DNA from: Opitutia bacterium
GTDB taxonomy: Bacteria; Verrucomicrobiota; Verrucomicrobiia; Opitutales; Opitutaceae
Assembly (NCBI GenBank): GCA_003142955.1
Contig: PLOH01000072.1
Coordinates: 16,539 to 80,538, forward strand
Direction: 5' to 3'
Length of the DNA: 64,000 nucleotides
The notes beneath the pieces are model-generated. The model did no database searches. It was not told the origin of the DNA and was given only the letters and a program-made list of their open reading frames with translations. The position numbers and the translations under genes are program-made. Shown piece after piece: positions 18,735-53,468 of this stretch. Each line of letters starts with the position of its first letter. Positions within the stretch are counted from its first letter, which is position 1.

Positions 18735-18750
18735 GCGAAACGACAAAAGG

Positions 18751-37522: not shown

Positions 37523-38308
37523 ATGAAAGTCGTCATACTCTGCGGAGGCAAAGGAACGCGCCTGCGGGAAGAGACCGAGTTTCGGCCCAAGCCGATGCTG
37601 CCAATCGGCGACCGCCCGATCCTGTGGCACATCATGAAGATCTACGCCCATTTCGGGCACAAGGATTTCATCCTCTGCCTCGGCTACAAGGGCGACGCGA
37701 TCAAGGACTACTTTCGCAATTACCAATGGCACTCCGGGGCCGTCACCTTGCGGCTCGGCCGCGATCCCGCGGTGAAATTCCACGACGATCACGGCGAGGA
37801 AGACTGGAGTGTCACGCTGGCCAACACCGGGGAAAATGCGATGACGGCCCACCGGGTGCGGTCGATCCGGCGCTTCCTCGGCTCCGATGAGACCTTCCTG
37901 CTGACCTATGGGGACGGGGTGGGCGACATCGACATCCCCGCTAGCATCGAGTGGCACCGTAACGCCGGCGCGGTTTGTACGCTCACGGCGGTGCATCCTC
38001 CCGGCCGCTTCGGGGAACTGCGCCTGACTCCGGATGGGAAGGTGCGGGGCTTCAATGAAAAGCCACAGGCCGAAGGAGGGTCGATCAACGGCGGCTTTAT
38101 GGTGTGCGACCGCCGGCTGTTTGATTACCTGTCCGACGATCCCGCGCTGATGCTGGAGCAGGCGCCGATGCGGCAGCTCACCGCGGACGGCAAGCTGGCG
38201 GCCTACCAGCACCATGGATTCTGGCAGCCGATGGATACGCTCCAGGAGTTCACCTTGCTCAACCAACTTTGGGAAACCGGTCGGGCTCCTTGGAAGGTCT
38301 GGTCATGA
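37523..38308 (+). CDS. rfbF: glucose-1-phosphate cytidylyltransferase
   Basis: MKVVILCGGKGTRLREETEFRPKPMLPIGDRPILWHIMKIYAHFGHKDFILCLGYKG is a near-textbook RfbF/DdhA N-terminus. Confidence 0.92.
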   Translation: MKVVILCGGKGTRLREETEFRPKPMLPIGDRPILWHIMKIYAHFGHKDFILCLGYKGDAIKDYFRNYQWHSGAVTLRLGRDPAVKFHDDHGEEDWSVTLANTGENAMTAHRVRSIRRFLGSDETFLLTYGDGVGDIDIPASIEWHRNAGAVCTLTAVHPPGRFGELRLTPDGKVRGFNEKPQAEGGSINGGFMVCDRRLFDYLSDDPALMLEQAPMRQLTADGKLAAYQHHGFWQPMDTLQEFTLLNQLWETGRAPWKVWS

Positions 38309-39444
38309 GCCACGTCTTCGGCGATTGTTATCGCGGTCAACGCGTCTTGATTACGGGCCATACGGGTTTCAAGGGCTCGTGGCTGGCCGAGTGGTTGCTG
38401 GAGCTGGGCGCCGAGGTCATCGGCTACAGCCTGCCGCCGCCGACTTCGCCGGCGTTGTTCCGCCAACTGGGCCTGGAGCGGCGCCTGCGCCACGTGCCCG
38501 GAGATGTGCGGGATCCGGCGGCGCTGGCCGGGATCGTGCGCGAGACGATGCCGGCGTACGTTTTTCACCTGGCCGCCCAGCCGATCGTGCGGACCTCCTA
38601 CGCCCAGCCGATGGAAACCTATGCGACCAACGTGATGGGGACCGTCCACCTGCTGGAGGCGGTCCGGCAGGCCGGCGGCGCCTGTGCGGTGGTCGTGGTG
38701 ACCAGCGACAAGTGCTACGAGAACCGCGAGCGCGGGCAGGCCTATCGCGAAGAGGATCCGCTCGGCGGGCACGATCCCTACAGCTCAAGCAAGGGCTGCG
38801 CCGAACTGGTCGTCAGCGCCTATCGCCGCTCCTTCTTTTCGGCCCCCGCCTCTCCTGTCCAGCTGGCCTCGGCGCGGGCGGGCAATGTCGTGGGCGGGGG
38901 CGACTGGGCGGTGGACCGCATTGTCCCCGACTGCATCCGCGCGCTGCAGCGCGGGGAGCCCATCGCCGTGCGGAACCGGAGCGCCGCGCGTCCCTGGCAA
39001 CACGTGCTTGAACCGCTCAGCGGCTACCTCTGGCTGGGCGCCTGCCTGGCCCGGCCCGAGCTCGCCCCCGGCGGATCGCGGCCGCCCGCCGCCGCCTTCA
39101 ATTTCGGTCCGCCGCTGGCCTCGATCCGCCCGGTGGAGGCCTTGGTGGAGGAGGTCCTCCGGCGCTGGCCCGGGCGATGGGAAGATCGCAGCGACTCGCG
39201 GGCGGTGCATGAAGACGCCTATCTCAGTCTGGCCGTGGACAAGGCGTACCAGGTCCTGGGCTGGCGGCCTGTCTGGGACTTTGCGGCCTCGATCCAACAA
39301 ACCGTCGACTGGTATCGCACCGCCGCGGAGGGCGAACGGGGCACGGAGTTCAACCCGCGCGCGCGGGCGTCGACCCGGGAGCAGATTGCGCGGCATCAGT
39401 CCGACGCCCTCGCGCAGGGGCGGCCGTGGATCTCGGCGGCCTGA
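38305..39444 (+). CDS. rfbG: CDP-glucose 4,6-dehydratase
   Basis: Internal ATG overlapping the rfbF stop (ATGA). VLITGHTGFKGSWLAEWL, DPYSSSKGCAE (YxxxK). Confidence 0.9.
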   Translation: MSHVFGDCYRGQRVLITGHTGFKGSWLAEWLLELGAEVIGYSLPPPTSPALFRQLGLERRLRHVPGDVRDPAALAGIVRETMPAYVFHLAAQPIVRTSYAQPMETYATNVMGTVHLLEAVRQAGGACAVVVVTSDKCYENRERGQAYREEDPLGGHDPYSSSKGCAELVVSAYRRSFFSAPASPVQLASARAGNVVGGGDWAVDRIVPDCIRALQRGEPIAVRNRSAARPWQHVLEPLSGYLWLGACLARPELAPGGSRPPAAAFNFGPPLASIRPVEALVEEVLRRWPGRWEDRSDSRAVHEDAYLSLAVDKAYQVLGWRPVWDFAASIQQTVDWYRTAAEGERGTEFNPRARASTREQIARHQSDALAQGRPWISAA

Positions 39445-39461
39445 ACCAATCCTTCTTGAAA

Positions 39462-40778
39462 ATGGACGAAAAGAAGACCCTGCGGCACGAGATCCTGGAG
39501 CTGGTGCGCCGGTACCATGCGGCGGGCGCGCCGGCCGATTTTCGGCCCGGCGAGGATTTCGTCAGGTATTCAGGCCGACACTACGATGAGCATGAATTGA
39601 TGGCGCTGGTCGACGCTTCGCTCGATTTCTGGCTCACGGCGGGACGCTATGCGGAGGAATTCGAGACCGGCTTGGGCGATTATCTGGGCCTGGACAACGT
39701 GCTGCTGGTCAATTCCGGTTCCTCGGCCAACCTGGTGGCGTTCTCCACGCTGACGTCGCCGAGGCTCAAGGACCGGCAGGTCAAGCCCGGGGATGAAGTC
39801 ATCACGGTGGCCGCGGGGTTTCCGACCACCGTCAACCCGATCGTGCAGAATCGCGCCGTCCCCGTCTTTGTTGACGTCGAGCTGGGCACCTACGTGCCGA
39901 CCCTGGACGGCATCGAGGCGGCGCTGAGCCCGCGCACCAAGGCGGTGATGATCGCGCACACGATGGGCGTGCCGTATCCGGTGCGCGAAGTCCGCGCATT
40001 CTGCGACCGGCACCGCTTGTGGCTGATCGAAGACAATTGCGACGCGTTGGGCAGCCGGTATGACGGCCGCCTTACGGCCACCTACGGCGACCTGGCCACG
40101 TTCAGCTTTTATCCCGCCCACCACCTGACCATGGGGGAGGGCGGCGCCGTGGCGACCGCTAGCGAGGAATTGGCCGGGATCGCGCGGAGCTTCCGTGATT
40201 GGGGGCGCGACTGCTACTGTGCGGGCGGAGAGAACAACACCTGCGGCAAGCGTTTTACCCAGCAGTTCGGCCGCCTTCCCCTCGGCTACGATCACAAGTA
40301 CGTCTACTCCCATATCGGCTACAATCTGAAGGTGACCGACATGCAGGCCGCGGTCGGCGTGGCCCAGCTGCGGAAGCTTGACGACTTCGTGGCGGCGCGA
40401 AAACGCAACCATGCCGTTTTGGCGGCGGGGTTGGACCGGCACGAGCGGCACCTGCTCCTGCACCGGGCGACGCCCAATTCCGATCCGTCGTGGTTCGGCT
40501 TCGTGATCACCGTGCGGCCGGAGGCGCCCTTCACCCGGGCGGAGCTGGTCCAGGCGCTCGACGCGGCGCGGATCGAGACCCGTAATCTTTTTTGCGGAAA
40601 CCTGTTGCGCCATCCGGCCTACGCGGAGATCGAGCACCGGGTGGCGGGACCGTTGACTAACAGCGACCTGATCACCACCCGCACGTTTTTCATCGGCGTC
40701 TATCCCGGCTTGACCGAGCCCATGCTCCAACACGTGCTCGCGACCGTCGACCGGTTCATGGCTGGGAAGGCGGGCTGA
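39462..40778 (+). CDS. rfbH: CDP-6-deoxy-L-threo-D-glycero-4-hexulose 3-dehydrase (E1, RfbH/DdhC)
   Basis: DegT/DnrJ/EryC1 fold. LVNSGSSANLVAF. An E1-specific Fe-S Cys pattern CYCAGGENNTC (CxCx7C). Confidence 0.88.
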   Translation: MDEKKTLRHEILELVRRYHAAGAPADFRPGEDFVRYSGRHYDEHELMALVDASLDFWLTAGRYAEEFETGLGDYLGLDNVLLVNSGSSANLVAFSTLTSPRLKDRQVKPGDEVITVAAGFPTTVNPIVQNRAVPVFVDVELGTYVPTLDGIEAALSPRTKAVMIAHTMGVPYPVREVRAFCDRHRLWLIEDNCDALGSRYDGRLTATYGDLATFSFYPAHHLTMGEGGAVATASEELAGIARSFRDWGRDCYCAGGENNTCGKRFTQQFGRLPLGYDHKYVYSHIGYNLKVTDMQAAVGVAQLRKLDDFVAARKRNHAVLAAGLDRHERHLLLHRATPNSDPSWFGFVITVRPEAPFTRAELVQALDAARIETRNLFCGNLLRHPAYAEIEHRVAGPLTNSDLITTRTFFIGVYPGLTEPMLQHVLATVDRFMAGKAG

Positions 40779-40812
40779 GCGCGCCGGCTCCCCGTTCCCC
40801 GCCTTCGCCGCA

Positions 40813-41559
40813 ATGAGCCTGCCCCGCAAGATCCGCTGTGCCGTGGAATCCGTCGTCGATCACGGCGGGCGAGTCTACAGCGTCGAATTGAAGCCTGACC
40901 GGCCGATCCCCGTGTTTCAGCCGGGACAGTTCCTGCATCTGACGGTAGACGAGTTCGACCCGGCTGGGTTCTGGCCGGAGTCGAGGGTGTTTTCCATCGC
41001 CAGCTCGCCCACAGAGCGGAACCGCCTCCGGATCTGCTATTCGGTCAAGGGACGCTATACGCAGAAAATGGAGCGGGCGATCGCCGTCGGGCGCGAGGTC
41101 TGGATCAAGCTTCCCTATGGCGATTTTGTCATCGAGCCCGACCAGGAGGTCGTCCTGGTGGCTGGCGGAACGGGCATCAGCGCGTTTGCGGCCTTCCTAG
41201 CCATGCTGACGTCCCAGCGGACGCTTCCGGTCACGCTGGTTTATGGTGCGCGCTCGCCGGACCTGCTGTTGTTCGACGAGATGATCCTGGGCCAGCACCG
41301 CCGCATCCCGGCGCTGCAGGTGGTTTTTTTCGCGGAGAACGGCGCGCCCGCGTTGGCGGCGCGGTTGGAACGGCAGTCGCGGGCACCCCAGTGTTTTCCC
41401 GGCCGGATCTCGCTGCCGGAAATCTGGCCGCTGCTGTCCGATCCGGCGAATCGTCTCTTCTATCTTGCCGGGCCTCCGGCGATGGTCGAGACACTCTGTT
41501 CCAGTCTGCGGGCCCGCGGTGCCACCCCTGACCGGATCCGCGTCGACGCCTGGGAGTAG
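40813..41559 (+). CDS. FNR-type FAD/NAD(P)H oxidoreductase, E3 (DdhD/AscD)-like but without a ferredoxin domain
   Basis: RVFSIASSP (RxYS-type FAD motif) and LVAGGTGISAF (NAD motif). 248 aa. No CX4CX2C plant-type 2Fe-2S module is visible. Confidence 0.75.
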   Translation: MSLPRKIRCAVESVVDHGGRVYSVELKPDRPIPVFQPGQFLHLTVDEFDPAGFWPESRVFSIASSPTERNRLRICYSVKGRYTQKMERAIAVGREVWIKLPYGDFVIEPDQEVVLVAGGTGISAFAAFLAMLTSQRTLPVTLVYGARSPDLLLFDEMILGQHRRIPALQVVFFAENGAPALAARLERQSRAPQCFPGRISLPEIWPLLSDPANRLFYLAGPPAMVETLCSSLRARGATPDRIRVDAWE

Positions 41560-41654
41560 TCTCATCCCGGGCGCGCCAGCTCGGCTCCGGCCCAAGAAGA
41601 ATCATTGCCAGCAATCCCCGCCCGCGAGACATTGATTGCCGTCGCTAGCCACTC

Positions 41655-42728
41655 ATGCCGCCCCTGCCGACCGAGGATCTTGATCATGTCCTGACGCACA
41701 CCCGCCCGCTTTGGGAGCAGCTGCGCGGCCATCGGTTTTTCATGACGGGCGGCACCGGCTTCTTCGGCCGGTGGCTGCTGGAAAGCCTGCTCGCGGCCAA
41801 CCGCCGACATGATCTCCGGGCCACCGCGGTGGTTCTAACGCGGGATCCTGGCGGATTCGCGGACCGCGCGCCCCATATCGCGGGAAACCCGGCCGTGCGG
41901 CTGGTCGGCGGTTCAGTGGCGGCGTTTGACCCAGTCGCGGTCGCGCGGGATTTTCCCGGCTTTGATGCCGTGATTCATTTGGCGACGGAGGCGGATCTGG
42001 CCGCCGTCCTGGCCCGTCCGCTCGATGCAATCGACGTGATTGCCGGCGGAACCCGCCGAGTGATTGACTTGGCGGCGCGGACCGGCGTGCGCCGGGTTCT
42101 GCTGGCGAGTTCCGGCTCGGTCTATGCCCGGCCGGCTACCGGCGGCGCGCCGCTGGAAGAACCGCAGTCGGCCGCGCCTGATCCGACCGATATGGACCAG
42201 GCGTATGCGATCAGCGGGGAAGCGAAGCGTCAGGCGGAAGCGCTGTGCGCCGCGTGGGGGAGGCAACACGGGACGGCCGCCCTCCTCGCGCGTTGTTTCA
42301 CCTTTGTCGGTCCGGGCATGCCGCTCGGCGGCAAGTTTGCACTTGGCAATTTCCTGGAGGACGCGATGGCGGGCCGCCCGATCGTCATCAAGGGCGACGG
42401 CACCCCGGTGCGCTCGTATCTTTACGCCGGCGATCTGACGATCTGGTTGTGGACCATCCTGGTGAACGGTGTGGCGGGACGCCCCTACAACGTCGGTTCT
42501 GAGCGCGGGATCAGCTTGCGCGACCTCGCCGAGCGCGTCGCGAGCGTGCTGGGCAGCGCCGCCGGGGTGCGCGTGATGCAGGCCGCCGATCCAGCGCGTC
42601 CGGTGGACTATTATGTGCCCTCGGTCCGGCGGGCAGGGGAGGAGCTAGGCCTGCGCGAACACATCTCACTCGATTCCGCCCTCCGCCGGACGGCAGTCTG
42701 GTTTCGTGGACATGATCGCGCCCGCTGA
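41655..42728 (+). CDS. NAD-dependent epimerase/dehydratase-family sugar reductase/epimerase
   Basis: FFMTGGTGFFGRWLLESL Rossmann motif, extended SDR length (357 aa), pathway context. Confidence 0.78.
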   Translation: MPPLPTEDLDHVLTHTRPLWEQLRGHRFFMTGGTGFFGRWLLESLLAANRRHDLRATAVVLTRDPGGFADRAPHIAGNPAVRLVGGSVAAFDPVAVARDFPGFDAVIHLATEADLAAVLARPLDAIDVIAGGTRRVIDLAARTGVRRVLLASSGSVYARPATGGAPLEEPQSAAPDPTDMDQAYAISGEAKRQAEALCAAWGRQHGTAALLARCFTFVGPGMPLGGKFALGNFLEDAMAGRPIVIKGDGTPVRSYLYAGDLTIWLWTILVNGVAGRPYNVGSERGISLRDLAERVASVLGSAAGVRVMQAADPARPVDYYVPSVRRAGEELGLREHISLDSALRRTAVWFRGHDRAR

Positions 42729-42734
42729 CCTGCC

Positions 42735-43937
42735 ATGACAAAGACCGCCCATCGGCCGTGCCCCGTGTGTGGAGGCCCGGAGGTCGCGGTGCTGCACCAT
42801 CAGCGCTTCGTTCTGCCTCAGGGGCACCCGTTGCCGTCGAGCTACGATGTGGTGGCCTGCTCCCGGTGCGATTTTGTCTTCGCCGACACGACCGGTACGG
42901 CTGCGGATTATGACCGCTACTACGCGCAGTACTCCAAATATGCCGACCAGGGCACCGCTACGGGCGGGGGCGGCGATGCCGCGGATCAGGAGCGTTTGCG
43001 GGCCATGGCCGAGGCCATCGCCGGCCGTCTGCCGGACAAACATGCGCGCATCGTCGACATCGGCTGTGCCAACGGTGGGCTGCTGGGAGCGCTGAAGGCC
43101 CGGGGGTATTCGCACCTGCTGGGCATCGACCCATCGCCCACCTGCGTGGAGAACGCCCGGCGGCTGTTTGATCTGCCCGTCAGCCAGGGCTGGCTGCTGG
43201 CGCTGCCGCCGCAAGCCGCCCCCGCGGATCTGGTGATCGTCTCGCACGTCCTGGAGCATGTGCTTGACCTGCGCCGGGCCCTCGCGCAGGTCCGCGCCGT
43301 GCTCTCCCCGCACGGGCTGGTCTACGCGGAAGTCCCGGATGCGCAACGCTACGTCGAGTGCTTGGCGGCCCCGTTCCAGGATTTCAACACCGAGCACATC
43401 AATCATTTCGGCACCGCTTCGCTCGAAAATCTGTTTTCGTCCTGCGGCCTTTTCTGCCTCGCGCTGGGGCGGAAGACGATCACGGTGGCCCAGGGCGTGC
43501 CGTATCCCGCCGTATTCGGATTCTTCGGACAGGCTTCCGCCGGCACTCCCGGACCCGCCTGGAAACGCGATCCGGCGTTCCTCCAGAACGTGGGTCGGTA
43601 CATCGTCGCCTCGCGGTCCCAGTTGGCGGGAATCGACCAGCGGCTGGCGCCCGTTCTCGGCGGGCCGGTCATTGTCTGGGGCACGGGCCAGCTGACGCTG
43701 AAACTGCTGGCAGAAACCTCGCTCGGCCGGGCGCAAATCGCGGCGTTCACCGACGCCAATCCGTTGCATCATGGGGAATGCCTGAACGGCGTGCAGATTG
43801 TCGCGCCGGAACATCTCGTCTCCCTGCCGCCCCATCCGATCGTTGTCGGCAGCCTGCTGCATCAAGCCGCCATTGTGGCGCGCATCCGGGGTCCGCTCGG
43901 CCTGCGAAACCCGCTTGTCACCCTCGAGCCGGCGTGA
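42735..43937 (+). CDS. SAM-dependent methyltransferase with N-terminal zinc ribbon and C-terminal Rossmann-like domain (NDP-hexose C-methyltransferase-like architecture)
   Basis: CPVCGG...CSRCDF, SAM motif I VDIGCANGGLLG, C-terminal VIVWGTGQLTLKLL...NGVQIV. Confidence 0.75.
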   Translation: MTKTAHRPCPVCGGPEVAVLHHQRFVLPQGHPLPSSYDVVACSRCDFVFADTTGTAADYDRYYAQYSKYADQGTATGGGGDAADQERLRAMAEAIAGRLPDKHARIVDIGCANGGLLGALKARGYSHLLGIDPSPTCVENARRLFDLPVSQGWLLALPPQAAPADLVIVSHVLEHVLDLRRALAQVRAVLSPHGLVYAEVPDAQRYVECLAAPFQDFNTEHINHFGTASLENLFSSCGLFCLALGRKTITVAQGVPYPAVFGFFGQASAGTPGPAWKRDPAFLQNVGRYIVASRSQLAGIDQRLAPVLGGPVIVWGTGQLTLKLLAETSLGRAQIAAFTDANPLHHGECLNGVQIVAPEHLVSLPPHPIVVGSLLHQAAIVARIRGPLGLRNPLVTLEPA

Positions 43938-44049
43938 CGGCAGGCTGGGTGGGCGCCATGGGCCTGGCCGCGCCGCCGGTGTTTCGGGCGGGAGGGGAGC
44001 TTGGTTTCGAACTCGTCTTGGAGGCGGTTCTCTCCTTGTCTGGAGTGGC

Positions 44050-45897
44050 ATGGCTGGAGTCATCCCCCCCTACTCCCGCAAGGCGGGATCCATCCGCGTG
44101 GCCGACTACATTTTCCGCACGCTGGCCGAGCATGGCATCCGCCACGTTTTCCTGGTCACGGGCGGCAGCGCGATGCATCTGAACGACGCGCTGGGCCGGG
44201 TCCCGGAGCTGGAGGCGGTGTGCTGCCATCATGAACAGGCCTGCGCCATCGCGGCGGAGAGCTACTTTCGCCTGACGAACCGGCTGGCGGCCGTAAACGT
44301 CACCGCCGGACCGGGCGCCACCAACGCGATCACCGGGGTCTACGGCGCATTTGTCGATTCAATGGCCATGGTGGTCATATCCGGCCAGGTGAAAGCGGAG
44401 ACGCTGGTCCGGAGCACGAATCTGCCGCTCCGCCAGCTCGGCGACCAGGAGGTGGACATCGTGCGCATGGTGGAAGGCGTCACCAAGTGCGCGGTGCTGG
44501 TCTCCGATCCCGCATCCATCCGCTATCACCTGGAGCGCTCCTTGCACCTCGCCACGCACGGTCGGCCGGGGCCGGTGTGGCTCGACATTCCGATCAATGT
44601 GCAGGCGGCGCAGATCGATCCGACGTCCCTGCGGAGCTACGATCCGGCGGAAGACGCGCTGCAATTCGAGACCTCCGGCCTGGAGGCGGTCGGTCGCCAG
44701 ATCATCGAACGGCTGGCCGCGGCGCAGCGCCCGGTGATCTACGCCGGCACGGGCATCCGCCTGTCCGGGCAGTACGCCACCTTTCTCCGGTTGCTGGACC
44801 AGCTCGGCATTCCAGTGGTCACCGCGTGGAATTCCAACGACCTGCTGCCGGACGACCATCCGGCCTATGCCGGCCGGCCCGGGACGCTGGGCGACCGGGC
44901 GGGCAATTTCGCCGTTCAGAACGCCGACGTGCTGCTCATCCTCGGCTGCCGGCTCAACCTCCGGCTGGTCAGCTATAATTGGGAGAATTTCGCCCGCGGC
45001 GCCTTCAAGATCTGGGTCGACATCGATGCGGCCGAGCTGAAGAAGCCCACCGTGCGACCCGACCTGCCGGTGCACGCCGATCTCGCCGAGGTCCTGCCGC
45101 TGCTGGTGCGGCTCAGCGAGGGCGGCGATCGCGAGCGGCACGGGCGCTGGCGCGGCTGGTGTCAGGACTGCCGGCGGCGGTACCCGGTGGTCCTGCCGGA
45201 GTACTGGCGCGACGACCGTCCGGTGAACCCCTATTGCTTTGTCGAGCGGCTGTTTGCCCAGCTTGGCGAGGATGAGGTGGTGGTGACCGGCGACGGCACG
45301 GCTTGCGTCACGACCTTCCAGGCCGGCCGGGTTCGCCGGGGGATGCGGCTGTATCACAATTCCGGATGCGCCCCGATGGGCTACGACCTGCCCGCCGCGG
45401 TAGGCGCCGCGGTGGCGCTCGGCGGGAACCGCCGGGTGATCTGCCTGGCGGGCGACGGCAGCATCATGATGAACCTGCAGGAGCTGCAGACGATAGCCGG
45501 ACGGGCCCTGCCGGTGAAGATCTTCGTCCTGAACAACCGCGGCTATCACTCGATCCGGCAGACCCAACAGAATTACTTTGCCGACAATATCGTCGGCTGC
45601 GGCACCGACTCCGGCCTCAGTTTCCCGGACTTTGCGGTGGTGGCCCGGGCCTTCGGACTGGCCAGCCGGCGGTGCGGCAGCCACGCGGAACTCGACGAGG
45701 CGATTCGGGCCACGCTGGCGGAGGTGGGACCGAGCCTGTGCGAGGTCATGCTCGACTGGCGCCAGCCCTTCGCGCCCAAGGTATCTTCCCGCCGTCTGGA
45801 GGACGGACGAATGGTCGCCGCGCCCCTGGAAGACATGGCTCCGCTTCTCAGCCGCGAAGAGCTGGCGGCGAATCTGTTCCTCCCTCCCAGGATATGA
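44050..45897 (+). CDS. thiamine-diphosphate dependent enzyme (acetolactate-synthase fold; YerE-like candidate)
   Basis: Internal ATG of ORF 43798..45897. IRVADYIFRTLAEHGIRHVFLVTGGSAMHL. ThDP motif GDGSIMMNLQELQTIAGRALPVKIFVLNNRGY. Confidence 0.85.
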   Translation: MAGVIPPYSRKAGSIRVADYIFRTLAEHGIRHVFLVTGGSAMHLNDALGRVPELEAVCCHHEQACAIAAESYFRLTNRLAAVNVTAGPGATNAITGVYGAFVDSMAMVVISGQVKAETLVRSTNLPLRQLGDQEVDIVRMVEGVTKCAVLVSDPASIRYHLERSLHLATHGRPGPVWLDIPINVQAAQIDPTSLRSYDPAEDALQFETSGLEAVGRQIIERLAAAQRPVIYAGTGIRLSGQYATFLRLLDQLGIPVVTAWNSNDLLPDDHPAYAGRPGTLGDRAGNFAVQNADVLLILGCRLNLRLVSYNWENFARGAFKIWVDIDAAELKKPTVRPDLPVHADLAEVLPLLVRLSEGGDRERHGRWRGWCQDCRRRYPVVLPEYWRDDRPVNPYCFVERLFAQLGEDEVVVTGDGTACVTTFQAGRVRRGMRLYHNSGCAPMGYDLPAAVGAAVALGGNRRVICLAGDGSIMMNLQELQTIAGRALPVKIFVLNNRGYHSIRQTQQNYFADNIVGCGTDSGLSFPDFAVVARAFGLASRRCGSHAELDEAIRATLAEVGPSLCEVMLDWRQPFAPKVSSRRLEDGRMVAAPLEDMAPLLSREELAANLFLPPRI

Positions 45898-46574
45898 AAA
45901 AGATCCCGCAACGCACCGCCTTCATCACCGGCAGCTCGCGCGGCATCGGTGCCGCCATCGCATCCGAGCTGCGCGCGCGGGGCTTCCGGCTGGTTGCGCC
46001 GTCCCGCGGCGAACTCGATCTCGAACAGCCGGCCTCGATCGAGGCGTGGCTGCGGGAGCATCCCGCGCCCGCCGTGGATGTGCTGGTCAACAACGCCGGC
46101 GTCAATTTCCTGCAGCCCCTCGCCGAGCTCGAAAGCCGGACCTGGCCGGCGATGCTCCAGACCAATGTGTCGGCGCCGCTACGCCTGATCCAGGCCTTCG
46201 TCCCGCACATGCGCCGGCAGCGCTGGGGGCGGATCCTGAACGTCAGCAGCATTCTCGGTTTCGTGGCGCGCGAGCGTCGCGCCGCCTATTCCATGACCAA
46301 GGCGGCGCTGAACGCGTTGACCCGCAGCGCGGCGGTGGAGTTCGGCCCGGAGGGCGTGCTCGTCAATGCACTCTGCCCGGGTTACGTCGAGACCGCGTTG
46401 ACCCGGCAGAACAATTCCTCGACCGAGATCGCGGCCCTGGCCGCTTCGATTCCGCTCCAACGCTTGGCCCAGCCCGAGGAACTGGCCCGGGTGGCGGCCT
46501 TTCTGTGCTCCGAGGAGAATACCTATCTGACCGGGCAGATGGTGGTGGTGGACGGGGGCTTTACCTGCCGATGA
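45894..46574 (+). CDS. classical SDR oxidoreductase (FabG-like)
   Basis: ATG at 45894 overlaps the ThDP-enzyme stop (ATGA). TGSSRGIGAAI, NNAG, YSMTKAAL. Confidence 0.88.
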   Translation: MKKIPQRTAFITGSSRGIGAAIASELRARGFRLVAPSRGELDLEQPASIEAWLREHPAPAVDVLVNNAGVNFLQPLAELESRTWPAMLQTNVSAPLRLIQAFVPHMRRQRWGRILNVSSILGFVARERRAAYSMTKAALNALTRSAAVEFGPEGVLVNALCPGYVETALTRQNNSSTEIAALAASIPLQRLAQPEELARVAAFLCSEENTYLTGQMVVVDGGFTCR

Positions 46575-47647
46575 GCGCGGTGCTGACAATCCAGAGCCGC
46601 AGCCATCCCTACACCGTCGAGACTTTTGACTCGCTCGGCGAGGCGTTGGCTGCCACCCCCGCGGCCGCGGCGGGCACGCTGTGTCTGGCCGATCGCGCGG
46701 TGCACGCCCATTATCACGTTGATTTCGAACGCTGCCTGCCGCCCGAGAGGATTTTGCTGGTCGAGGCGAGCGAGGAGGCCAAGTCGTTTGAGGCGATGGC
46801 GCCGGTGTTCACGTGGCTGCTCCGCCGTGGCTTCAAGCGCGATGGATGCCTGTTGGTTGTGGGCGGCGGAGTGCTGCAGGATATCGGCTGTTTCGCGGCG
46901 TCCGTGCTGATGCGCGGGGTGCGTTGGGAGCTCCTACCCACGACGTTGCTGGCCCAATGCGACAGTTGCATCGGCAGCAAAAGCTCCCTCAATCTCCAGT
47001 TATTCAAGAACCAGATCGGCACCTTCTATCCGCCGCACCGCGTCCTGCTGGCTCACGGGGTCTTGCGGACGCTGCCCTGGGACGAGATCCGGTCCGGGCT
47101 GGGCGAAGTGATCAAGCTCCACCTGCTGGCCGGCGAGCAGCCCTTCGCCGAGCTGATGGACAGTCTGGCCGCGCTGCCGGGCGATGATTCGATGCTGCCG
47201 CGCTGGGTACTCAGCTCCCTGCGGATCAAGCAAACCTATATCGAGCCTGACGAATTCGACCGCGGGATCCGCAACCTGCTGAACTATGGGCACACGTTCG
47301 GCCACGCCTACGAATCGGCGACGCACTATGAAATTCCCCATGGCATCGCCGTGACTCTGGGCATGCTCACGGCCACTTGGGTGTCGGTGCGCTTGGGCTT
47401 GGTGGACGCCAGCCATTATGCGGCAATGAAGGACCGCCTTCGCCCGTGGCACGAACCCTACGGATCCCGGCTGAAGTCGGTCGAGCTTTCGGCCGTCTTG
47501 GACGCGATCAAGCTCGACAAGAAAGCCACCCGGTCAGCGTTGCATTGCATCCTCACCCGCGGGATCGGCCGGATGGAGAAAATCTCCGTGGACCTGGAAA
47601 GCCAGTTGCGTCCTGCGCTCGGTGAATTAATCGCTCGCGAAATCTGA
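46571..47647 (+). CDS. 3-dehydroquinate synthase-family protein (sugar phosphate cyclase superfamily)
   Basis: ATG at 46571 overlaps the SDR stop (ATGA). VVGGGVLQDIGCFAAS, GEVIKLHLL, metal ligands LLNYGHTFGHAYE and PHGIAV. Confidence 0.82.
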   Translation: MSAVLTIQSRSHPYTVETFDSLGEALAATPAAAAGTLCLADRAVHAHYHVDFERCLPPERILLVEASEEAKSFEAMAPVFTWLLRRGFKRDGCLLVVGGGVLQDIGCFAASVLMRGVRWELLPTTLLAQCDSCIGSKSSLNLQLFKNQIGTFYPPHRVLLAHGVLRTLPWDEIRSGLGEVIKLHLLAGEQPFAELMDSLAALPGDDSMLPRWVLSSLRIKQTYIEPDEFDRGIRNLLNYGHTFGHAYESATHYEIPHGIAVTLGMLTATWVSVRLGLVDASHYAAMKDRLRPWHEPYGSRLKSVELSAVLDAIKLDKKATRSALHCILTRGIGRMEKISVDLESQLRPALGELIAREI

Positions 47648-47695
47648 ACCCGAGGAGTTTTCTCAAGATCCCCCCGCCGCCCGTCCATTCGTCTT

Positions 47696-48784
47696 ATGGA
47701 ACGAAACATTTTCGAAAACCTGTTTGTCCTGGAGATGGCCAGCAACCACCTCGGCAAGCTGGAGCGCGGTCTCCAGATTGTGCGCGAGCACAGCCGGATC
47801 GTCCGTTTCAACAACGTCCGGGCTGCGATCAAGCTGCAGTTCCGGGATCTCGACAGCTTCGTGCACAAGGATTTTCGCGATCGCGAGGACACCCGCTACA
47901 TCCGGCGGGTGCTGGATACCCGGCTGGGCAAGGACGACTACGCCACGCTCGTGGAGGCGATCACCAAGAGCAACTGCATCCCGATGGCTACGCCGTTCGA
48001 CGAGAACTCCGTCGACTGGTGCGTGGAGTTCGGACTGCCTATCATCAAGATCGCCAGCGCGGACAGCAACGACTGGCTGCTCCTGGAGAAGATCGCGAGC
48101 ACCCGGAAGCCCTGCATCATCTCGTTCGGCGGCACGCCGCTGAAGGACATGGACGATGTGGTCACCTTTTTCGAGAACCGCAACATCCCCCTCGCCATCA
48201 ATCATTGCGTGGCCGCCTATCCCCACGAGGAAAACGAGGCGGAGCTGGAGCAGATCGATTATCTGCGTGACCGCTATCCCGGCCATACGATCGGCTATTC
48301 CTGCCATGAGTACCGCGACTGGACGATGTCGGTGGCGATCGCCTATGCCAAGGGAGCGCGAACGTTCGAGCGCCATATCGACATCGACAGCGACGGCGCC
48401 GAGGTCGCGCCCTATTCCTCGCGGCCCCGGCAGATCGACGACTGGTTCAAGGCTTTTCACCGGGCCGTGGCCTTCTGCGGCACCGCGAGGACGAATCGGA
48501 AGGTCCCGCTGGCCAAGGAAACCTCCTATCTCGATTCTTATGTGCGGGGCGCCTACGCCCGCCGCGACCTGATCCCAGGACAGATCTTGACCGAAAACGA
48601 CATCTATCTGGCCATCCCGCTGCAGAAGGGCCAGTTGTCCTGTCGGGAGTTGATGCTCGGCCGATTCGGCCACCGGATCGTCAAACCGGTGACCAAGGAC
48701 GCACCGCTGACGATCGACACGGTCGATACGCCCTATTCGCAGGACGAGCACCTACGGGCGTTGATCTACAGCCGAGGCCTGTGA
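47696..48784 (+). CDS. NeuB/PseI/SpsE-family PEP-dependent sugar aldolase (sialic-acid-synthase fold) with C-terminal SAF domain
   Basis: [45 protein letters not shown]. The C-terminal approx 60 aa is SAF-like. Confidence 0.85.
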
Positions 48785-48823
48785 ATTTCCGCCGCGCCGC
48801 CGCAGCCTGCCGCTCGATTCTCC

Positions 48824-49753
48824 ATGAAAAAGATCTCCGTAGTCAGCGGATGCTACAATGAGGAGGCCAACCTTGAGGAACTCGTGGGGCGCGTGTTGGC
48901 GGTCGCCGCAAAATACCCGACGTACGAATGGGAGCATATCATCATCGACAATTGTTCCACCGACCGCTCGGCGGACGTGCTGCGCAGCCTGGCCGGGTGC
49001 GACCGGCGCATCAAAGTGATCTTCAATGTCCGCAACTTTGGCCACATCCGGTCGCCGTATCATGCCATGCTGCAGGCGCACGGCGATGCGGTGATCTACC
49101 TGGCCTCGGACCTCCAAGATCCCCCCGAGCTCATCGAGCAGTTCATTCCCAAGTGGGAGGAGGGCTGGAAGGTCGTGGCCGCGATCAAAGATCACAGCGA
49201 GGAATCCTCGTTGTTCTTCCTGGTCCGGAGCGCCTACTACCGGCTCATTGCCCTCCTGGCGGAGACGGAGCTGTTGAAGAACTTCACCGGATTTGGCCTC
49301 TACGACCAGGCGGTCATCGAGCACCTGCGCGCCTTCGATGACCCCTATCCCTATCACCGTGGCCAGATCTCCGAACTGGGCTATCCCGTGGCGCGCGTCG
49401 CCTTCACCCAGCCGCAGCGCAAACGCGGTGTCACGAAGAGCAATTTCTTCACGCTGTATGACCTGGCGATGCTCGGTTTCACCAACCACTCCAAGGTCCC
49501 GCTGCGACTGGCCACCTTCCTGGGTTTCGCCTGCGCGCTGCTCTCGTTTTTGGCCGGCTCGGTCTACCTGGTGCTCAAGCTCCTGTTCTGGCGGGAGTTT
49601 CCCATCGGGCAGGCTCCGGTTGTGGTCGGGCTCTTTTTTCTGGGATCGGTGCAGTTGCTGTTCATCGGCGTCCTCGGTGAATACATCGGCGCGATCTATA
49701 CCAAGGTCTCCAAGCGCCCCTTGGTGGTGGAGCGCGAGCGGATCAATTTCTGA
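48824..49753 (+). CDS. GT2 polyprenyl-phosphate glycosyltransferase, copy 3
   Basis: KISVVSGCYNEEANL, IYLASDLQDPPE, two C-terminal TM helices. Confidence 0.88.
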   Translation: MKKISVVSGCYNEEANLEELVGRVLAVAAKYPTYEWEHIIIDNCSTDRSADVLRSLAGCDRRIKVIFNVRNFGHIRSPYHAMLQAHGDAVIYLASDLQDPPELIEQFIPKWEEGWKVVAAIKDHSEESSLFFLVRSAYYRLIALLAETELLKNFTGFGLYDQAVIEHLRAFDDPYPYHRGQISELGYPVARVAFTQPQRKRGVTKSNFFTLYDLAMLGFTNHSKVPLRLATFLGFACALLSFLAGSVYLVLKLLFWREFPIGQAPVVVGLFFLGSVQLLFIGVLGEYIGAIYTKVSKRPLVVERERINF

Positions 49754-49852
49754 CGCCGGTCGCGGCGACGTCTGGGCGATCCGGGCTCGCCATTCCGCAC
49801 CGGAATTGTCATTGATCCTTTCCGACCCCGAGCCGGACTTGTTCCTGCAATC

Positions 49853-51433
49853 ATGAGCCTATTCTCACTCGGAAAGACCAATCCCGCGACTGAGACCAGC
49901 CGGCTTCGTCTCTCGGTTTCGCTCACCCTGGTGTTTCTGGTCCTGGCTGGAATTGGCGCCTGGCGGCATGAACTCTGGCGGGATGAGATGCAGGCGTGGC
50001 TCAACGTCCGGGATGCGCCGAACCTCTCGGCGTTGCTCGAGGAGGTTCACTACAACGGGGCGCCCTCCCTTTGGTACTTGTTGTTGCGACCGCTGGCGCT
50101 GCTGACCTTCCGGCCGGAGGCGATGCAGATCCTGACGTGGATTCTCGCGGGCGCCACGGTTTTCGTCTTCGTGCATTTCGCTCCGTTCAACCGTCTGCAA
50201 AAGGCGCTGCTCGTCTGCAACTATTACCTCTTGTTCGAGTACGGGATTGTCTGCCGGAACTACCTGCCCGGGATCCTGGGCCTGGGCATCGCCTGCGTAC
50301 TCTTTCCGCGGGCGGAAGAACGGCCCTGGCCGTTCATTGCCGCGCTCCTTGCCGCCGCCTTGGCCAGTGTCCACAGCCTGATCGTGGCCGTGGCGCTGGC
50401 CGGCGGATTCTGGGCGCCCCGCTGTTTTCGCTGGGGCCCGCCGAAGGACGCCGGCGCCGGTTCCGCCCGCTTTCAGGCAGGGCCGCTGCTCTGCTTCGCA
50501 GGCGGGCTTGCCTATGCGGTCTATTCGATGCTCCCGCGGGCCGACACCCTCTACCCGCAGACGGACGGGTGGATCCTGGATTGGGTTCCGATCCGGCTTG
50601 CGAGAGTGGCCTCGGCCGTCGTCAATTCGTGTTTCACCTGGCCTCGGCCGGCGGGGTTTTCCCGGATCCCTCCGTGGGACACTCCGACGTTTTCCATTGA
50701 GAACGGGCAGATCTTCATCTGGGCGCTGCTGCTTTTTGTGCTGTCCGTCCTCTTCTTCAAACGTCATGCGGGGGCATTGGTTCTCTATGTCGTGGGAACG
50801 GTCGGCGTCGCTGCTTTCTTCTATGTCAAATACATCGGCGCCGCGCGGCACGCGGGCTTGCTGTTCTTCACGTTTTTATTCGCCCAGTGGATCAAACAGG
50901 CGTCGCGGCCCCGGCCTTCCCCCGGTTCATCCGCGGTGTTCGACCGGTGGGCCTCTGTGGTGCTCACAGCGATGCTGGCGGCCCAGGCGGTGACCGGGGT
51001 CTGGGCGCTGAAGGAGGATTTCAACCAGCGGTTTTCCTGTGGAAAGGCGGCGGCGCAGATTCTGCAGGAGCGCCACCTCGACCGCGGGTTCATCGCGGTC
51101 GCTCCGGACTGGGCGGGTGCCCCGCTGGCGGGATATCTGAATCGCTCGCTCTACTATCCCAACGCGCGAGGGTATGGTCGCGCCACCCACTGGGACAAAC
51201 GGCGGACCGAGTTCCTGGAGGACGATGAGATTATGCGCCGAACCATCGAGGAGGCCAATGGCCAGGCCTTCGTCATTTCGTTCGAGCATCCATTGGCGAA
51301 AGAGTTCACCGAAAAATACGGCTTGGAAACGGTGGCCGACGTGGTTGGGTCCATGACGCCGTTCGAAGACTACCACCTCTTCTACCGGCCGGGGAAGGCG
51401 GCAGCAGGCGCGAGTCCGGAGTCGACGCATTGA
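49853..51433 (+). CDS. polytopic membrane protein, GT-C-like glycosyltransferase candidate
   Basis: 526 aa, more than 10 TM helices. Acidic first-loop motif WRHELWRDEMQAWL. Soluble C-terminal approx 130 aa. Follows a polyprenyl-P GT2. Confidence 0.7.
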   Translation: MSLFSLGKTNPATETSRLRLSVSLTLVFLVLAGIGAWRHELWRDEMQAWLNVRDAPNLSALLEEVHYNGAPSLWYLLLRPLALLTFRPEAMQILTWILAGATVFVFVHFAPFNRLQKALLVCNYYLLFEYGIVCRNYLPGILGLGIACVLFPRAEERPWPFIAALLAAALASVHSLIVAVALAGGFWAPRCFRWGPPKDAGAGSARFQAGPLLCFAGGLAYAVYSMLPRADTLYPQTDGWILDWVPIRLARVASAVVNSCFTWPRPAGFSRIPPWDTPTFSIENGQIFIWALLLFVLSVLFFKRHAGALVLYVVGTVGVAAFFYVKYIGAARHAGLLFFTFLFAQWIKQASRPRPSPGSSAVFDRWASVVLTAMLAAQAVTGVWALKEDFNQRFSCGKAAAQILQERHLDRGFIAVAPDWAGAPLAGYLNRSLYYPNARGYGRATHWDKRRTEFLEDDEIMRRTIEEANGQAFVISFEHPLAKEFTEKYGLETVADVVGSMTPFEDYHLFYRPGKAAAGASPESTH

Positions 51434-51506: not shown

Positions 51507-53468
51507 TCATCTGGGCAGCTCAGTGCGGCCGTCCAGCACCGCGGCATCCGCCCAATCTGCCTGATCCCAACCAACCCCGTCACCAGCGTCCCCGACCGCG
51601 AGCTTAAGCTCAGTCACTCCGGTGACGTCAATCTTGAGCTTTTCAATCGGGGTTCCCCATAGCATCACCGGCGTCTGGTGGCGCAGTTGCCCGTCCGTAT
51701 AAACGGAGAAGATCACGCTGCCTGGCTGGCCATGGGCATTGTCGTCAAGTCCGACGTCCGCGGTAAACCATTTGTAGTGTCCGCCAAGGGAGAAGGTGAT
51801 CTCCGAGATCGCGTGGGTCCCGATCCCGCGCCGATAGGTGACCCCTTGGAGCCGGATCGGTTTGCCAACGATTGACTGGTCCCACTGGGGCGGGGCGCCA
51901 AGCGACTGCGTGGCGCGTAACGGGTTGTCATCACTCAAATAGTGCGAGGTCTCCTCCGCTCGCCTCGGTTTCAGCTGGTAGATCATCGGGGTCGACTCGG
52001 GCGCGGGAAGCATGGTCACCAGCTTGAGTCTCCGCCGATCCACCATGGGGAAGTTCCCCTGGAAGGCGGGCCAGATCGTGTGCACGAGCAGGAAGTCGCC
52101 TGGTTGAGCCCGGTCCCAGAAATTGATATCGGCCAGCGTGCCGAATCCCGGGCGCCCGGCGTGCTGGTGGACCGGGTCGGCAAAGGCGTAGGCAAAGCGC
52201 AGGTCGAGTTCATTCTGGGTCGAGGCGTCGACCCACAGATGGGCGTCGTGATGGTGCTGCAGCCAGTCGACCACCGCCGGCATGTAGTCCCGGCCGTCCA
52301 CATATTCACGGTGATTGGCCATCGCGACGCGCACGAGCATGATTGCCATCACCGCCATCAATCCAGCGATGACACCCTTCAGAATCCGGGAACGCGCCGC
52401 CAGGATCCACTCTCCGGCGAAGGCGATCACGGTGGCCGTCGGCACACTGATCAAGGCGAAGTACCGCGGTTCCTTGTGGTAGGGCAGGTAAGCCTGCCAG
52501 TTCATGCTGCCGAACTCGATCCAGAGCAAAACGCCGAGCACAAAGCAGGCCGCCGGCCGGCCGCGATTGCCGGCGAAGAAACAAAACGGAAGGGAGGCGA
52601 TGAGCAGCCACATGTACGGGCCGTAATAGGGATAGTGATTCGGGTAAGGCCCGAAGCCCGTTGTCTCAGTGCGAAGGCCCAGAAACACCTGGGGCAGGTA
52701 ACGAAAGCTCGTCGATACGTCGCCGACGCCTTCCCCTTTGTCCGCCTGCACCTTGAACCAGACGATCGAGGTATGAAAGCGGGCGAGCCAGTCACCGGTG
52801 AGATGCTTCAGCACCGCCGCGTCGACCAGCATGACCGTGAAAAACCCCAGCCCGACGATGGCATATTCCCAGGGGAACCGGCGCTCAAAAATCATGTCCG
52901 TCAGGGCCACCAAGAAGATCCCCCAGGCGAAGATGAAGCCCCATTCCTTGGTGATCGCGGAGAATCCCCAGATCAATCCGGCGGTCGCCCCGAGGATCAG
53001 CCGCCGCGCCCCGACCGCCTGGCGGAACAGAAGAAGCGTCAGGAGCAACGCGCCGCCATAAAACGACATCTCAATGTCCCCCCGGATGGTCGAAGACACC
53101 ATCCAGTCGATTGGATTCAGCACCAGGGCCGCGCAGCCGACTGCCGCGGCGCCGATGGACAGGCCCAACGTCCGGATCGAGGCATAAGCCAGCGGGACTG
53201 CGGCCAGTCCGTAGAGAAACGGGGGCAACAACGCGCTCCAATAGGAGACGCCGAAGACTTTTAGCGACAGCGCGATGGGGCCCCACATCCCGAACCGGAT
53301 CCCCCACATCGAATGGAGCAGCTCATAGTTATTGTCATTAAAAAAATTCCTTATATAGAATAGATAGACCCAGTCGTCGTGACCGTACAATCCTGAGAAC
53401 AACGTCAGCCGCAAGGCGGCCGCGAGGAGCAGGAAGGTGACGGGGACCAGGATCTCTTTCCTGTGCAT
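51507..53468 (-). CDS. GT-C (GT39/ArnT-PMT-like) membrane glycosyltransferase fused to a C-terminal NPCBM carbohydrate-binding module
   Basis: N-terminal approx 500 aa is polytopic, with GLYGHDDWVYLF in the first loop. The C-terminal approx 150 aa (DNA approx 51507-51960) reads YLSD..GIGTHAISEITFSLGGHYKWFTADVGLDD...GSVIFSVYTDG...LKLAVGDAGDGVGWDQADWADAAVL, the NPCBM/NEW2 pattern. Confidence 0.8.
   Translation of the reverse strand: MHRKEILVPVTFLLLAAALRLTLFSGLYGHDDWVYLFYIRNFFNDNNYELLHSMWGIRFGMWGPIALSLKVFGVSYWSALLPPFLYGLAAVPLAYASIRTLGLSIGAAAVGCAALVLNPIDWMVSSTIRGDIEMSFYGGALLLTLLLFRQAVGARRLILGATAGLIWGFSAITKEWGFIFAWGIFLVALTDMIFERRFPWEYAIVGLGFFTVMLVDAAVLKHLTGDWLARFHTSIVWFKVQADKGEGVGDVSTSFRYLPQVFLGLRTETTGFGPYPNHYPYYGPYMWLLIASLPFCFFAGNRGRPAACFVLGVLLWIEFGSMNWQAYLPYHKEPRYFALISVPTATVIAFAGEWILAARSRILKGVIAGLMAVMAIMLVRVAMANHREYVDGRDYMPAVVDWLQHHHDAHLWVDASTQNELDLRFAYAFADPVHQHAGRPGFGTLADINFWDRAQPGDFLLVHTIWPAFQGNFPMVDRRRLKLVTMLPAPESTPMIYQLKPRRAEETSHYLSDDNPLRATQSLGAPPQWDQSIVGKPIRLQGVTYRRGIGTHAISEITFSLGGHYKWFTADVGLDDNAHGQPGSVIFSVYTDGQLRHQTPVMLWGTPIEKLKIDVTGVTELKLAVGDAGDGVGWDQADWADAAVLDGRTELPR

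Follow-up and report, generated by a model that had tools for sequence, protein, structure and literature searches.

A dehydroquinate synthase paralogue and a NeuB-type aldolase as candidate side-chain suppliers in a branched-deoxysugar operon of an Opitutia bacterium

What does a dehydroquinate synthase (DHQS) homologue do in a glycan locus, between a short-chain dehydrogenase/reductase (SDR) and a NeuB-like aldolase? The question is raised by a 64,000-nucleotide stretch of DNA from an Opitutia bacterium (contig PLOH01000072.1, positions 16,539 to 80,538 of the forward strand), which is called the window throughout and to which all coordinates refer. The reading that we favour, and consider reasonably probable, is that the three genes form a donor-supply module for a YerE-type acyl-branched sugar that would resemble caryophyllose. 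The general assignment of the locus to a YerE-type branched-sugar pathway, which draws on gene homology, is put forward with considerable confidence.

The three genes are part of a twelve-gene operon

The cassette opens with a classical FabG-like SDR (45894-46574, +; PF13561, E 2e-49, and PF00106), a proposed ketoreductase. It continues with the DHQS paralogue (46571-47647, +), a proposed NAD+- and metal-dependent phospho-lyase, and ends with a NeuB-family phosphoenolpyruvate (PEP)-dependent aldolase carrying a SAF domain (47696-48784, +), the proposed maker of a 3-deoxy-2-ulosonate. On the forward strand, an ATGA at 45894-45897 is shared by the stop codon of a thiamine diphosphate (ThDP)-dependent enzyme (44050-45897, +) and the start codon of the SDR, while a second ATGA at 46571-46574 is shared in the same way by the SDR stop and the DHQS-like start; the DHQS-like stop codon (47645-47647) is followed after a gap of 48 nt by the ATG of the NeuB-like gene at 47696. 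Both overlaps and the gap had been described in the original prediction and are present in the sequence, and its family calls are upheld by Pfam matches (PF13561 for the SDR, PF01761 and PF24621 for the DHQS-like protein, PF03102 for the NeuB-like protein, with a borderline SAF domain). The translations are uninterrupted, with 226 aa for the SDR, 358 aa for the DHQS-like protein and 362 aa for the NeuB-like protein, and agree with the lengths of their homologues (222-224, 353-358 and 362 aa, respectively). The trio is not self-contained; it is part of one operon of 12 genes, all on the + strand, which extends from 37523 to 51433 with short gaps or overlaps, including an additional ATGA at 38305-38308 where the ddhA stop overlaps the ddhB start. 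A scan for promoters and terminators over the operon gave no excess of matches when compared to shuffled sequence.

The DHQS paralogue is distinct from AroB and keeps the complete set of DHQS ligands

The DHQS-like protein passes the TIGR04425 model with 419.8 bits (cut-off 400; profile positions 1-346 of 348) and fails the aroB model TIGR01357 (263.6 bits, cut-off 305). NCBIfam names TIGR04425 'AroB-related putative sugar phosphate phospholyase (cyclizing)' and ranks it as a 'hypothetical equivalog' to which no pathway is assigned; no papers came up when the literature was searched for this name. In a neighbour-joining tree of 87 homologues, the cassette-linked copies form one clade that includes the window protein and the copies without a cassette form another. 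The controls from the AroB clade score 374-396 bits, above the aroB cut-off, and even distant cassette copies score best against TIGR04425 (327-469 bits). The nearest relative, with 92% identity, is encoded on a metagenome contig, and a plasmid collection searched with the protein returned ordinary aroB only (about 35% identity). By these measures the DHQS-like protein is most probably not the housekeeping AroB and belongs to a separate clade. That it nonetheless serves the shikimate pathway, as its full DHQS fingerprint and its score to the aroB model could suggest, has a negligible probability: besides the cut-offs and the tree, cassette-type and aroB-type copies lie within 5 kb of each other in one genome (L026), Mycobacterium marinum has a separate aroB (MMAR_2177), no shikimate genes are found nearby and the gene is always in glycan contexts, being carried, unlike AroB, in glycan operons. 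The housekeeping role was rejected on cut-offs, tree and paralogues.

The active site was compared in an alignment with the DHQS of Aspergillus nidulans, Escherichia coli, Thermus thermophilus and Bacillus subtilis, and with ValA, a synthase of 2-epi-5-epi-valiolone (EEVS), BtrC, a synthase of 2-deoxy-scyllo-inosose (DOIS), and Ava_3858, a desmethyl-4-deoxygadusol synthase (DDGS). The sequences of the reference cyclases were taken from an eLife 2015 supplement. All 13 residues that bind 3-deoxy-D-arabino-heptulosonate 7-phosphate (DAHP), phosphate and metal in DHQS are identical in the window protein. In A. nidulans numbering we take this set to be R130, D146, K152, N162, E194, K197, K250, R264, N268, H271, H275, H287 and K356. 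The match is also complete in 16 of the 18 other aligned clade members, the two remaining, basal ones differing solely at K197 (H). The EEVS, DDGS and DOIS references differ from DHQS at 3-5 ligand positions (among K250, R264, N268, H275 and K356), whereas the window protein carries the DHQS residue at each of these five and thus no EEVS, DDGS or DOIS signature. Together, the retention of all ligands and their divergence in the other cyclases argue that the substrate should be a carboxylated, DAHP-like keto acid phosphate. The clade does depart from AroB at conserved positions near the motifs, by the substitutions G to Q103, S to C133, G to S136, G to Y/F145, Q to P154 and A to K221. Against solved structures, DHQS is matched best (1e-45) and EEVS, DDGS and DOIS more weakly (1e-22 to 1e-27). 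The fold family (PF01761, PF24621) is common to AroB, EEVS, DDGS and DOIS, and presumably the NAD+- and metal-dependent chemistry of phosphate elimination is too. Among these relatives, to which the original prediction had proposed comparing the protein, it is set apart from AroB by tree and cut-offs, and from EEVS, DDGS and DOIS by its active site. The SDR, whose translation has the classical motifs TGxxxGIG, NNAG and YxxxK, lies immediately upstream of the DHQS-like gene in every cassette locus.

A predicted YerE-like carboligase is the hub of the system

The ThDP enzyme, whose start was placed at the in-frame ATG 44050 from the sequence, displays the three ThDP domains PF02776, PF00205 and PF02775. 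Its best match among solved structures is 8rph (E 1.8e-121), and 5ahk, PpYerE, comes third (2e-67). The 8rph structure is that of JanthE, a characterised YerE-like lyase with physiological substrates described as unknown (PMC12188165). Identity to JanthE is 37%, and identity to the enzyme of a Chromobacterium violaceum cluster reaches 45%. By homology, the ThDP enzyme is a YerE/JanthE-like carboligase. The original prediction had treated it as merely upstream of the cassette; since it is such a carboligase and also the most constant partner of the SDR and the DHQS-like protein (see below), it is instead the hub of the system.

The ketosugar acceptor is accounted for by the first four genes of the operon: ddhA, a glucose-1-phosphate cytidylyltransferase gene (37523-38308, +; TIGR02623, 337.9 bits, cut-off 300), ddhB, encoding CDP-glucose 4,6-dehydratase (38305-39444, +; TIGR02622, 452.9 bits, cut-off 278), ddhC/rfbH, encoding the CDP-6-deoxy-4-ketohexose 3-dehydrase E1 (39426-40778, +; NF011936 RfbH, 683 bits, cut-off 423), and a gene for an E3-like flavin/NAD(P)H reductase (40813-41559, +; PF00175 and NAD(P)H-flavin reductase models), which, from its position, is the presumed electron donor of E1. 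As judged by homology, DdhA, DdhB, RfbH and the E3-like reductase make up the whole route to CDP-4-keto-3,6-dideoxy-D-glucose. This ketosugar is the classical acceptor of YerE. The E3-like reductase itself has only 248 aa and no 2Fe-2S ferredoxin domain; in a Pseudomonas cluster (L087) its place is taken by a Fer2-FAD-NAD protein of 329 aa.

An extended SDR follows (41655-42728, +; PF01370). It stays under every 4,6-dehydratase cut-off that we tried and shares 29-30% full-length identity with the extended SDRs adjoining JanthE-type ThDP genes (E 3e-35 and 1e-42); on these two grounds it is read as a candidate YerF/ErwF-type reductase of the acyl carbonyl. The JanthE gene itself sits in a cluster of erwiniose type, in the order ddhA, ddhB, rfbH, ThDP gene, epimerase/reductase, DmpF and DmpG, and the same is true of its Pseudomonas homologue. 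A methyltransferase dependent on S-adenosylmethionine (42735-43937, +; PF13489, E 2e-21) weakly resembles, over its full length, the one encoded in the C. violaceum cluster. Downstream of the cassette, a glycosyltransferase of family 2 (GT2; 48824-49753, +; PF00535 and the PgfS and ArnC models) is of the ArnC/PgfS-like, polyprenyl-phosphate type and has two C-terminal transmembrane helices.

The cassette recurs with a ThDP gene and with alternative aldolases

A profile scan of species-representative genomes with the DHQS-like protein yielded at least 80 loci, to which five metagenome loci were added, and the window proteins were mapped onto these. The SDR gene directly precedes the DHQS-like gene on the same strand in at least about 38 loci, with hosts among Verrucomicrobia, Planctomycetes, Cyanobacteria, Myxococcota, Armatimonadota, Firmicutes and Gammaproteobacteria as well as one haloarchaeon. 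Together with the ThDP gene the pair forms a near-constant core in at least about 35 loci, including those of Microcystis, a Polyangiaceae metagenome-assembled genome (MAG), Armatimonadales, Lachnospiraceae, Butyrivibrio, Ruminococcaceae and a Halobacteriales archaeon. About two thirds of the listed loci have, beside the core, one or more of ddhA, ddhB and rfbH, and about half show the window's linkage of the ThDP gene to the ketosugar genes. The extended SDR, which mostly adjoins the ThDP gene, is present in about half of the listed core loci, as is the GT2; in the closer loci the GT2 is kept downstream of the cassette with 54-64% identity. The earlier proposal that the three genes work with the upstream deoxysugar pathway is borne out both by the operon content and by these recurrent loci.

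The aldolase is the variable partner. Among the listed loci, 16 have only a NeuB-like enzyme and 12 only an HpcH/HpaI enzyme, while none has both; an HMGL/DmpG-like aldolase is found in Firmicute loci (6 among those listed). In one locus (L011:6706-9333) a single 875-aa open reading frame (ORF) encodes a YerE-like ThDP enzyme fused to an HpcH/HpaI aldolase. In C. violaceum (L088:10001-11488) and Azoarcus sp. KH32C (L089:10001-11491), a NeuB-type gene lies between rfbH and the YerE-like ThDP gene. From the mutual exclusivity with HpcH and from this gene order, NeuB-family enzymes appear to be recurrent partners of YerE-like enzymes, filling the slot that pyruvate aldolases occupy elsewhere. In a distant subclade (L027-L041; e.g. 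L027:11081-12511 and L038:11049-12362), 12 loci have an FGGY sugar kinase gene immediately after the DHQS-like gene, an arrangement that fits a logic of phosphorylation followed by elimination. A phosphatase of the haloacid dehalogenase superfamily is sometimes present in this subclade too.

The NeuB-like protein lies outside the known nonulosonic acid synthases

The NeuB-like protein passes PF03102 (125.7 bits, cut-off 22.1; E 2.7e-36) and, at the limit, the SAF model (21.3 bits, cut-off 21), and fails both TIGR03569 (100.4 bits, cut-off 399.65) and TIGR03586 (103.7 bits, cut-off 340.25). The equivalents of the residues that serve PEP binding, metal binding and catalysis in Neisseria meningitidis NeuB (NmNeuB) are invariant, including the two metal-binding histidines in GxSxH and E(R/K)H. 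On this evidence it holds as a putative PEP-condensing enzyme outside the NeuB, PseI and LegI equivalogs, with which it has the TIM-barrel and SAF domain in common. Seven invariant basic residues, which are missing from the cupin-type relatives and from NeuB, lend weak support to a phosphorylated aldose as substrate.

The closest solved structure is 3g8r (E 1.9e-65), deposited as the C. violaceum 'probable spore coat polysaccharide biosynthesis protein E' ('SpsE'), a NeuB-SAF-cupin fusion. The NeuB-like protein shares with it the TIM-barrel, the SAF domain and a basic insertion; 3g8r differs by its added C-terminal cupin, and its cluster has neither the SDR nor the DHQS-like gene. Since the 3g8r gene is the one found between rfbH and the ThDP gene in C. 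violaceum, with an equivalent in Azoarcus, the structure probably belongs to a branched-deoxysugar pathway.

The NeuB family membership, the SAF domain and the conserved catalytic residues could also point to a free higher-carbon ulosonic acid as the glycan unit itself, as in the sialic, pseudaminic, legionaminic and Kdo-type pathways. In one Desulfosudis oleivorans MAG (L021:8212-13958), an SDR and a DHQS-like gene are indeed followed by a gene for a CMP-type cytidylyltransferase (KdsB/NeuA type). This explanation is nevertheless very improbable for the window: the PseI and NeuB scores are far under their cut-offs, no CTP_transf_3 domain or CMP-ulosonate synthetase was found among the larger window ORFs scanned, leaving the NeuB-like protein, unlike NeuB, PseI and LegI, with no CMP-activation partner in the window, the UDP-GlcNAc-modifying genes of nonulosonic acid pathways are absent, and 15 of the 16 listed NeuB-type loci, all but L001, have a YerE-like ThDP gene no more than 10 kb away. 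The original prediction knew of no standard nonulosonic acid pathway that uses a DHQS homologue, and none fits here: a standard pathway of this kind was rejected on the equivalog scores and on the missing CMP-synthetase. Of its two product ideas, an ulosonic acid stands as a plausible intermediate and is improbable as the final glycan unit, since no CMP-ulosonate synthetase was found among the window ORFs scanned, and a carbocyclic unit is the weaker reading. Most likely, then, the ulosonic acid is an intermediate that provides the alpha-keto acid donor.

The Desulfosudis locus differs from the core loci in having no ThDP gene. A D-2-hydroxyacid dehydrogenase, a methyltransferase and a GFO/IDH/MocA oxidoreductase are also encoded in its flanks, and when four neighbouring ORFs were compared to solved structures in search of the aldolase, three had no match and one was a GT2. 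It may represent a pathway to a CMP-activated omega-deoxy ulosonic acid. A cytidylyltransferase of this type needs an intact ulosonic head, which argues that the product of the module there is uncyclised.

The operon probably belongs to a known kind of system, with two apparently undescribed elements

In the scheme published for acyl-branched sugars (Steitz et al. 2022), an alpha-keto acid made by an aldolase is decarboxylated by a YerE-like enzyme and added to CDP-4-keto-3,6-dideoxyglucose, after which a reductase acts; the origin of aldehyde '28' is left unexplained (PMC9306805). The operon has the ketosugar genes, the ThDP enzyme and the reductase of this scheme, but the slot of the aldolase, which in the scheme makes a 4-hydroxy-2-keto acid, is taken by a PEP-dependent NeuB-type enzyme and not by a pyruvate aldolase. 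Like the clusters of yersiniose and erwiniose type it has ddhA, ddhB, rfbH, a YerE-like lyase and an extended SDR; the yersiniose, ErwE and JanthE clusters, in contrast, use pyruvate itself or a DmpG/BphI-type aldolase with acetaldehyde dehydrogenase and have no DHQS-like, FabG-like SDR or NeuB-like genes.

The closest parallel is the caryophyllose locus for the lipooligosaccharide (LOS) of M. marinum. Its annotation lists a DHQS family protein (MMAR_2329), an aldolase/citrate lyase (MMAR_2331), a ThDP-binding protein (MMAR_2332), a GT2 (MMAR_2333), ddhA (MMAR_2334), RfbH (MMAR_2335) and CDP-glucose 4,6-dehydratase (MMAR_2336), separate from the housekeeping AroB (MMAR_2177) and a third homologue, MMAR_0578 (PMC12395582). 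By annotation this is the same gene set as in the window, with an aldolase of the HpcH/citrate-lyase type and a different gene order. Mutants in MMAR_2331-2333 fail to add caryophyllose, which is 3,6-dideoxy-4-C-(1,3,4,5-tetrahydroxyhexyl)-xylo-hexose with a side chain ending in methyl; the LOS as described contains no carbocycle (PMC5706390).

The system as a whole is probably of a known kind, and its architecture fits both the Steitz scheme and the caryophyllose locus. The original prediction had named a match of the cassette to a described pathway as a ground for refutation. This applies by half, to the architecture, and not to the NeuB-type aldolase or to the role of the DHQS paralogue with its SDR, both of which appear undescribed: in the literature covered, which does not include Krug et al. 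2024, no role is stated for MMAR_2329 and neither a NeuB-type aldolase nor a DHQS/SDR role is given for this pathway. Neighbours of NeuB type or DHQS type may have been noted already by Krug et al. 2024, whose survey reportedly spans over 200 YerE-like clusters. Bradyrhizose and caryose were also considered as products and set aside, the literature search having shown no biosynthetic link.

A proposed route to the branched side chain

In the route that we favour, the NeuB-like enzyme would first join PEP and a phosphorylated aldose into a DAHP-like 3-deoxy-2-heptulosonate 7-phosphate. As the cassette has no kinase, the aldose would most economically be erythrose 4-phosphate. The DHQS paralogue would then carry out a transient NAD+ oxidation and the beta-elimination of phosphate, which would leave a terminal methyl and a C6 ketone; with the enol intermediate protonated and the ring left open, a 3,7-dideoxy-2,6-diulosonate would be freed. 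The coupled FabG-like SDR could reduce the C6 ketone to give a 3,7-dideoxyheptulosonate, which the ThDP enzyme would decarboxylate, adding the resulting acyl anion to C4 of CDP-4-keto-3,6-dideoxyglucose. The extended SDR would reduce the acyl carbonyl and the methyltransferase decorate the product, and the GT2 would finally load the sugar onto polyprenyl phosphate for transfer beyond the cytoplasm. Counted through the first five steps, the carbons and hydroxyls would yield a 1,3,4,5-tetrahydroxyhexyl chain with a terminal methyl, i.e. the side chain of caryophyllose, with each enzyme used once. The most likely product, as predicted from the genes, is a 3,6-dideoxyhexose with a polyhydroxyalkyl chain on C4, placed on the cell surface.

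The same final side chain would result if the order were reversed, with the DHQS-like protein and the SDR acting first, e.g. on erythrose 4-phosphate to give a 4-deoxytetrose, followed by the aldolase with PEP or pyruvate and then by the ThDP enzyme. Such an order would parallel that of erwiniose, where ErwJ supplies the aldehyde to ErwI (PMC9306805), and would make the aldolase product the direct donor of the ThDP enzyme, as fits the HpcH-ThDP fusion and the NeuB-ThDP adjacency. It is quite improbable when the carboxylate-binding residues are considered: K250 and R264 are invariant in the 19 aligned clade members, and the corresponding K220 and R234 of the window protein are kept by at least 85% of all 43 clade sequences, while K250 is lost in EEVS and DDGS and R264 in DDGS and DOIS, three cyclases whose substrates are sugars with no carboxylate. 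Moreover, by its established mechanism DHQS works on a pyranose, a form that is out of reach for a C4 aldose.

Several points weigh against the aldolase-first route that we favour. The enol intermediate of DHQS can close spontaneously, as is established enzymology, and from a complete DHQS site one would expect ring closure of a DAHP-like substrate; the non-cyclising step is the weakest link of the route, and we regard its chances as evenly balanced. At the carbon whose configuration the aldolase sets, caryophyllose requires D-ribo, and DAHP is D-arabino. The substrates of all the enzymes are deduced from sequence, and the aldose partner, hence the chain length, is only a candidate. Likewise, the likeness of the window genes to the MMAR_2329 region is one of annotations and not of sequence. 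There are also loci with no ddh genes within 10 kb (L001, L003, L011 and L029), and in L003 the four-gene cassette stands alone. Finally, a Verrucomicrobia MAG (L020:8223-15197) has a TIGR04425 member (430 bits) with no ThDP, SDR or aldolase gene nearby, among neighbours that include a CDP-alcohol phosphatidyltransferase and MptE-like, TagF-like and Fe-ADH genes; this context would suit a cyclitol or polyol product, and the favoured route cannot explain it.

Several of these observations would be expected if the ring did close, i.e. if the DAHP-like acid made by the NeuB-like enzyme were cyclised by the DHQS-like protein and passed to the SDR, giving a quinate-like cyclitol carboxylate. The cyclitol would then enter the glycan separately, or would serve as a ketone acceptor for the ThDP enzyme and end as a C-branched cyclitol. 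We consider this carbocycle route unlikely, although it would draw on the 13 DHQS active-site residues that are kept, on the word 'cyclizing' in the family name, on the acceptance of cyclic ketones by YerE-like enzymes, on the four genes of L003 with no ddh genes nearby and on the CDP-alcohol phosphatidyltransferase and TagF-like gene beside the L020 member. A cyclised product has no alpha-keto acid, however, and the linkage of aldolase and ThDP enzyme, seen in the L011 fusion and in the C. violaceum adjacency, would be left with no donor logic. The M. marinum LOS as described contains no carbocycle, even though a DHQS-family gene is part of its locus; the cytidylyltransferase of L021 needs an open ulosonic acid; and the clade departs from AroB near the motifs (Q103, C133, P154, Y/F145). 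It is rather more doubtful that the paralogue cyclises before or after the ThDP ligation and so gives a deoxysugar with a C-linked, quinate-like cyclohexane ring or a C-branched cyclitol. We know of no biosynthesis for glycans with a C-linked cyclohexane or a C-branched cyclitol, and if such cyclisation took place it would be a new use of dehydroquinate synthase chemistry outside aromatic and aminocyclitol metabolism.

Significance of the non-cyclising route

The published scheme for long-branched sugars is silent on the source of the terminal-deoxy polyol chain, and the cassette offers a concrete, testable route to it. If the non-cyclising route is correct, DHQS chemistry would be halted before ring closure, and a function would be provided for TIGR04425, a widespread family with no known role, and for the NeuB subfamily that includes 3g8r. 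It also points to candidates for the physiological donors of YerE-like carboligases, enzymes of interest in biocatalysis. Given that Verrucomicrobia, Planctomycetes, Microcystis, rumen Firmicutes and a haloarchaeon all carry the cassette, cell surfaces may bear such branched sugars far more often than one would expect from the few structures known.

Other features of the operon and of the window

The last gene of the operon (49853-51433, +) encodes a 526-aa membrane protein in which about 7 transmembrane segments are predicted, with a soluble C-terminus after them. It has no Pfam or NCBIfam match and no homologue among the other loci compared; from the predicted topology, one may speculate that it is a GT-C-like transferase.

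The window holds three ArnC/PgfS-like polyprenyl-phosphate GT2 genes, at 33432-34385 (+) and 36266-37210 (-) in addition to the one in the operon (48824-49753, +), and three genes for large multi-pass membrane proteins (51507-53468, 53489-56032 and 61110-63260, all -). Two of these three membrane proteins have a PMT_2 domain (GT-C) and two a C-terminal NPCBM carbohydrate-binding domain, an unusual fusion. The two sets suggest that several extracytoplasmic glycosylation systems lie side by side. Among the GT-C-like genes there is also one for a radical SAM/SPASM protein (59971-61113, -).

Elsewhere in the window, an asparagine synthase is split (21432-22933, -) into overlapping GATase_7 (22145-22933) and Asn_synthase (21432-22334) parts, by a frameshift, as a pseudogene or through a sequencing error. 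An ORF at 18006-18746 (-) begins as an ABC transporter ATPase and has a Bac_transf fragment at its end; it adjoins an ABC-2 permease and a family 4 glycosyltransferase (GT4), and is a gene, chimeric or else mis-joined, from a glycan export system that depends on an ABC transporter. The sole RNA gene found in the window is a tRNA-Gly(CCC) at 26130-26203 (+), which comes after recR (25433-26026).

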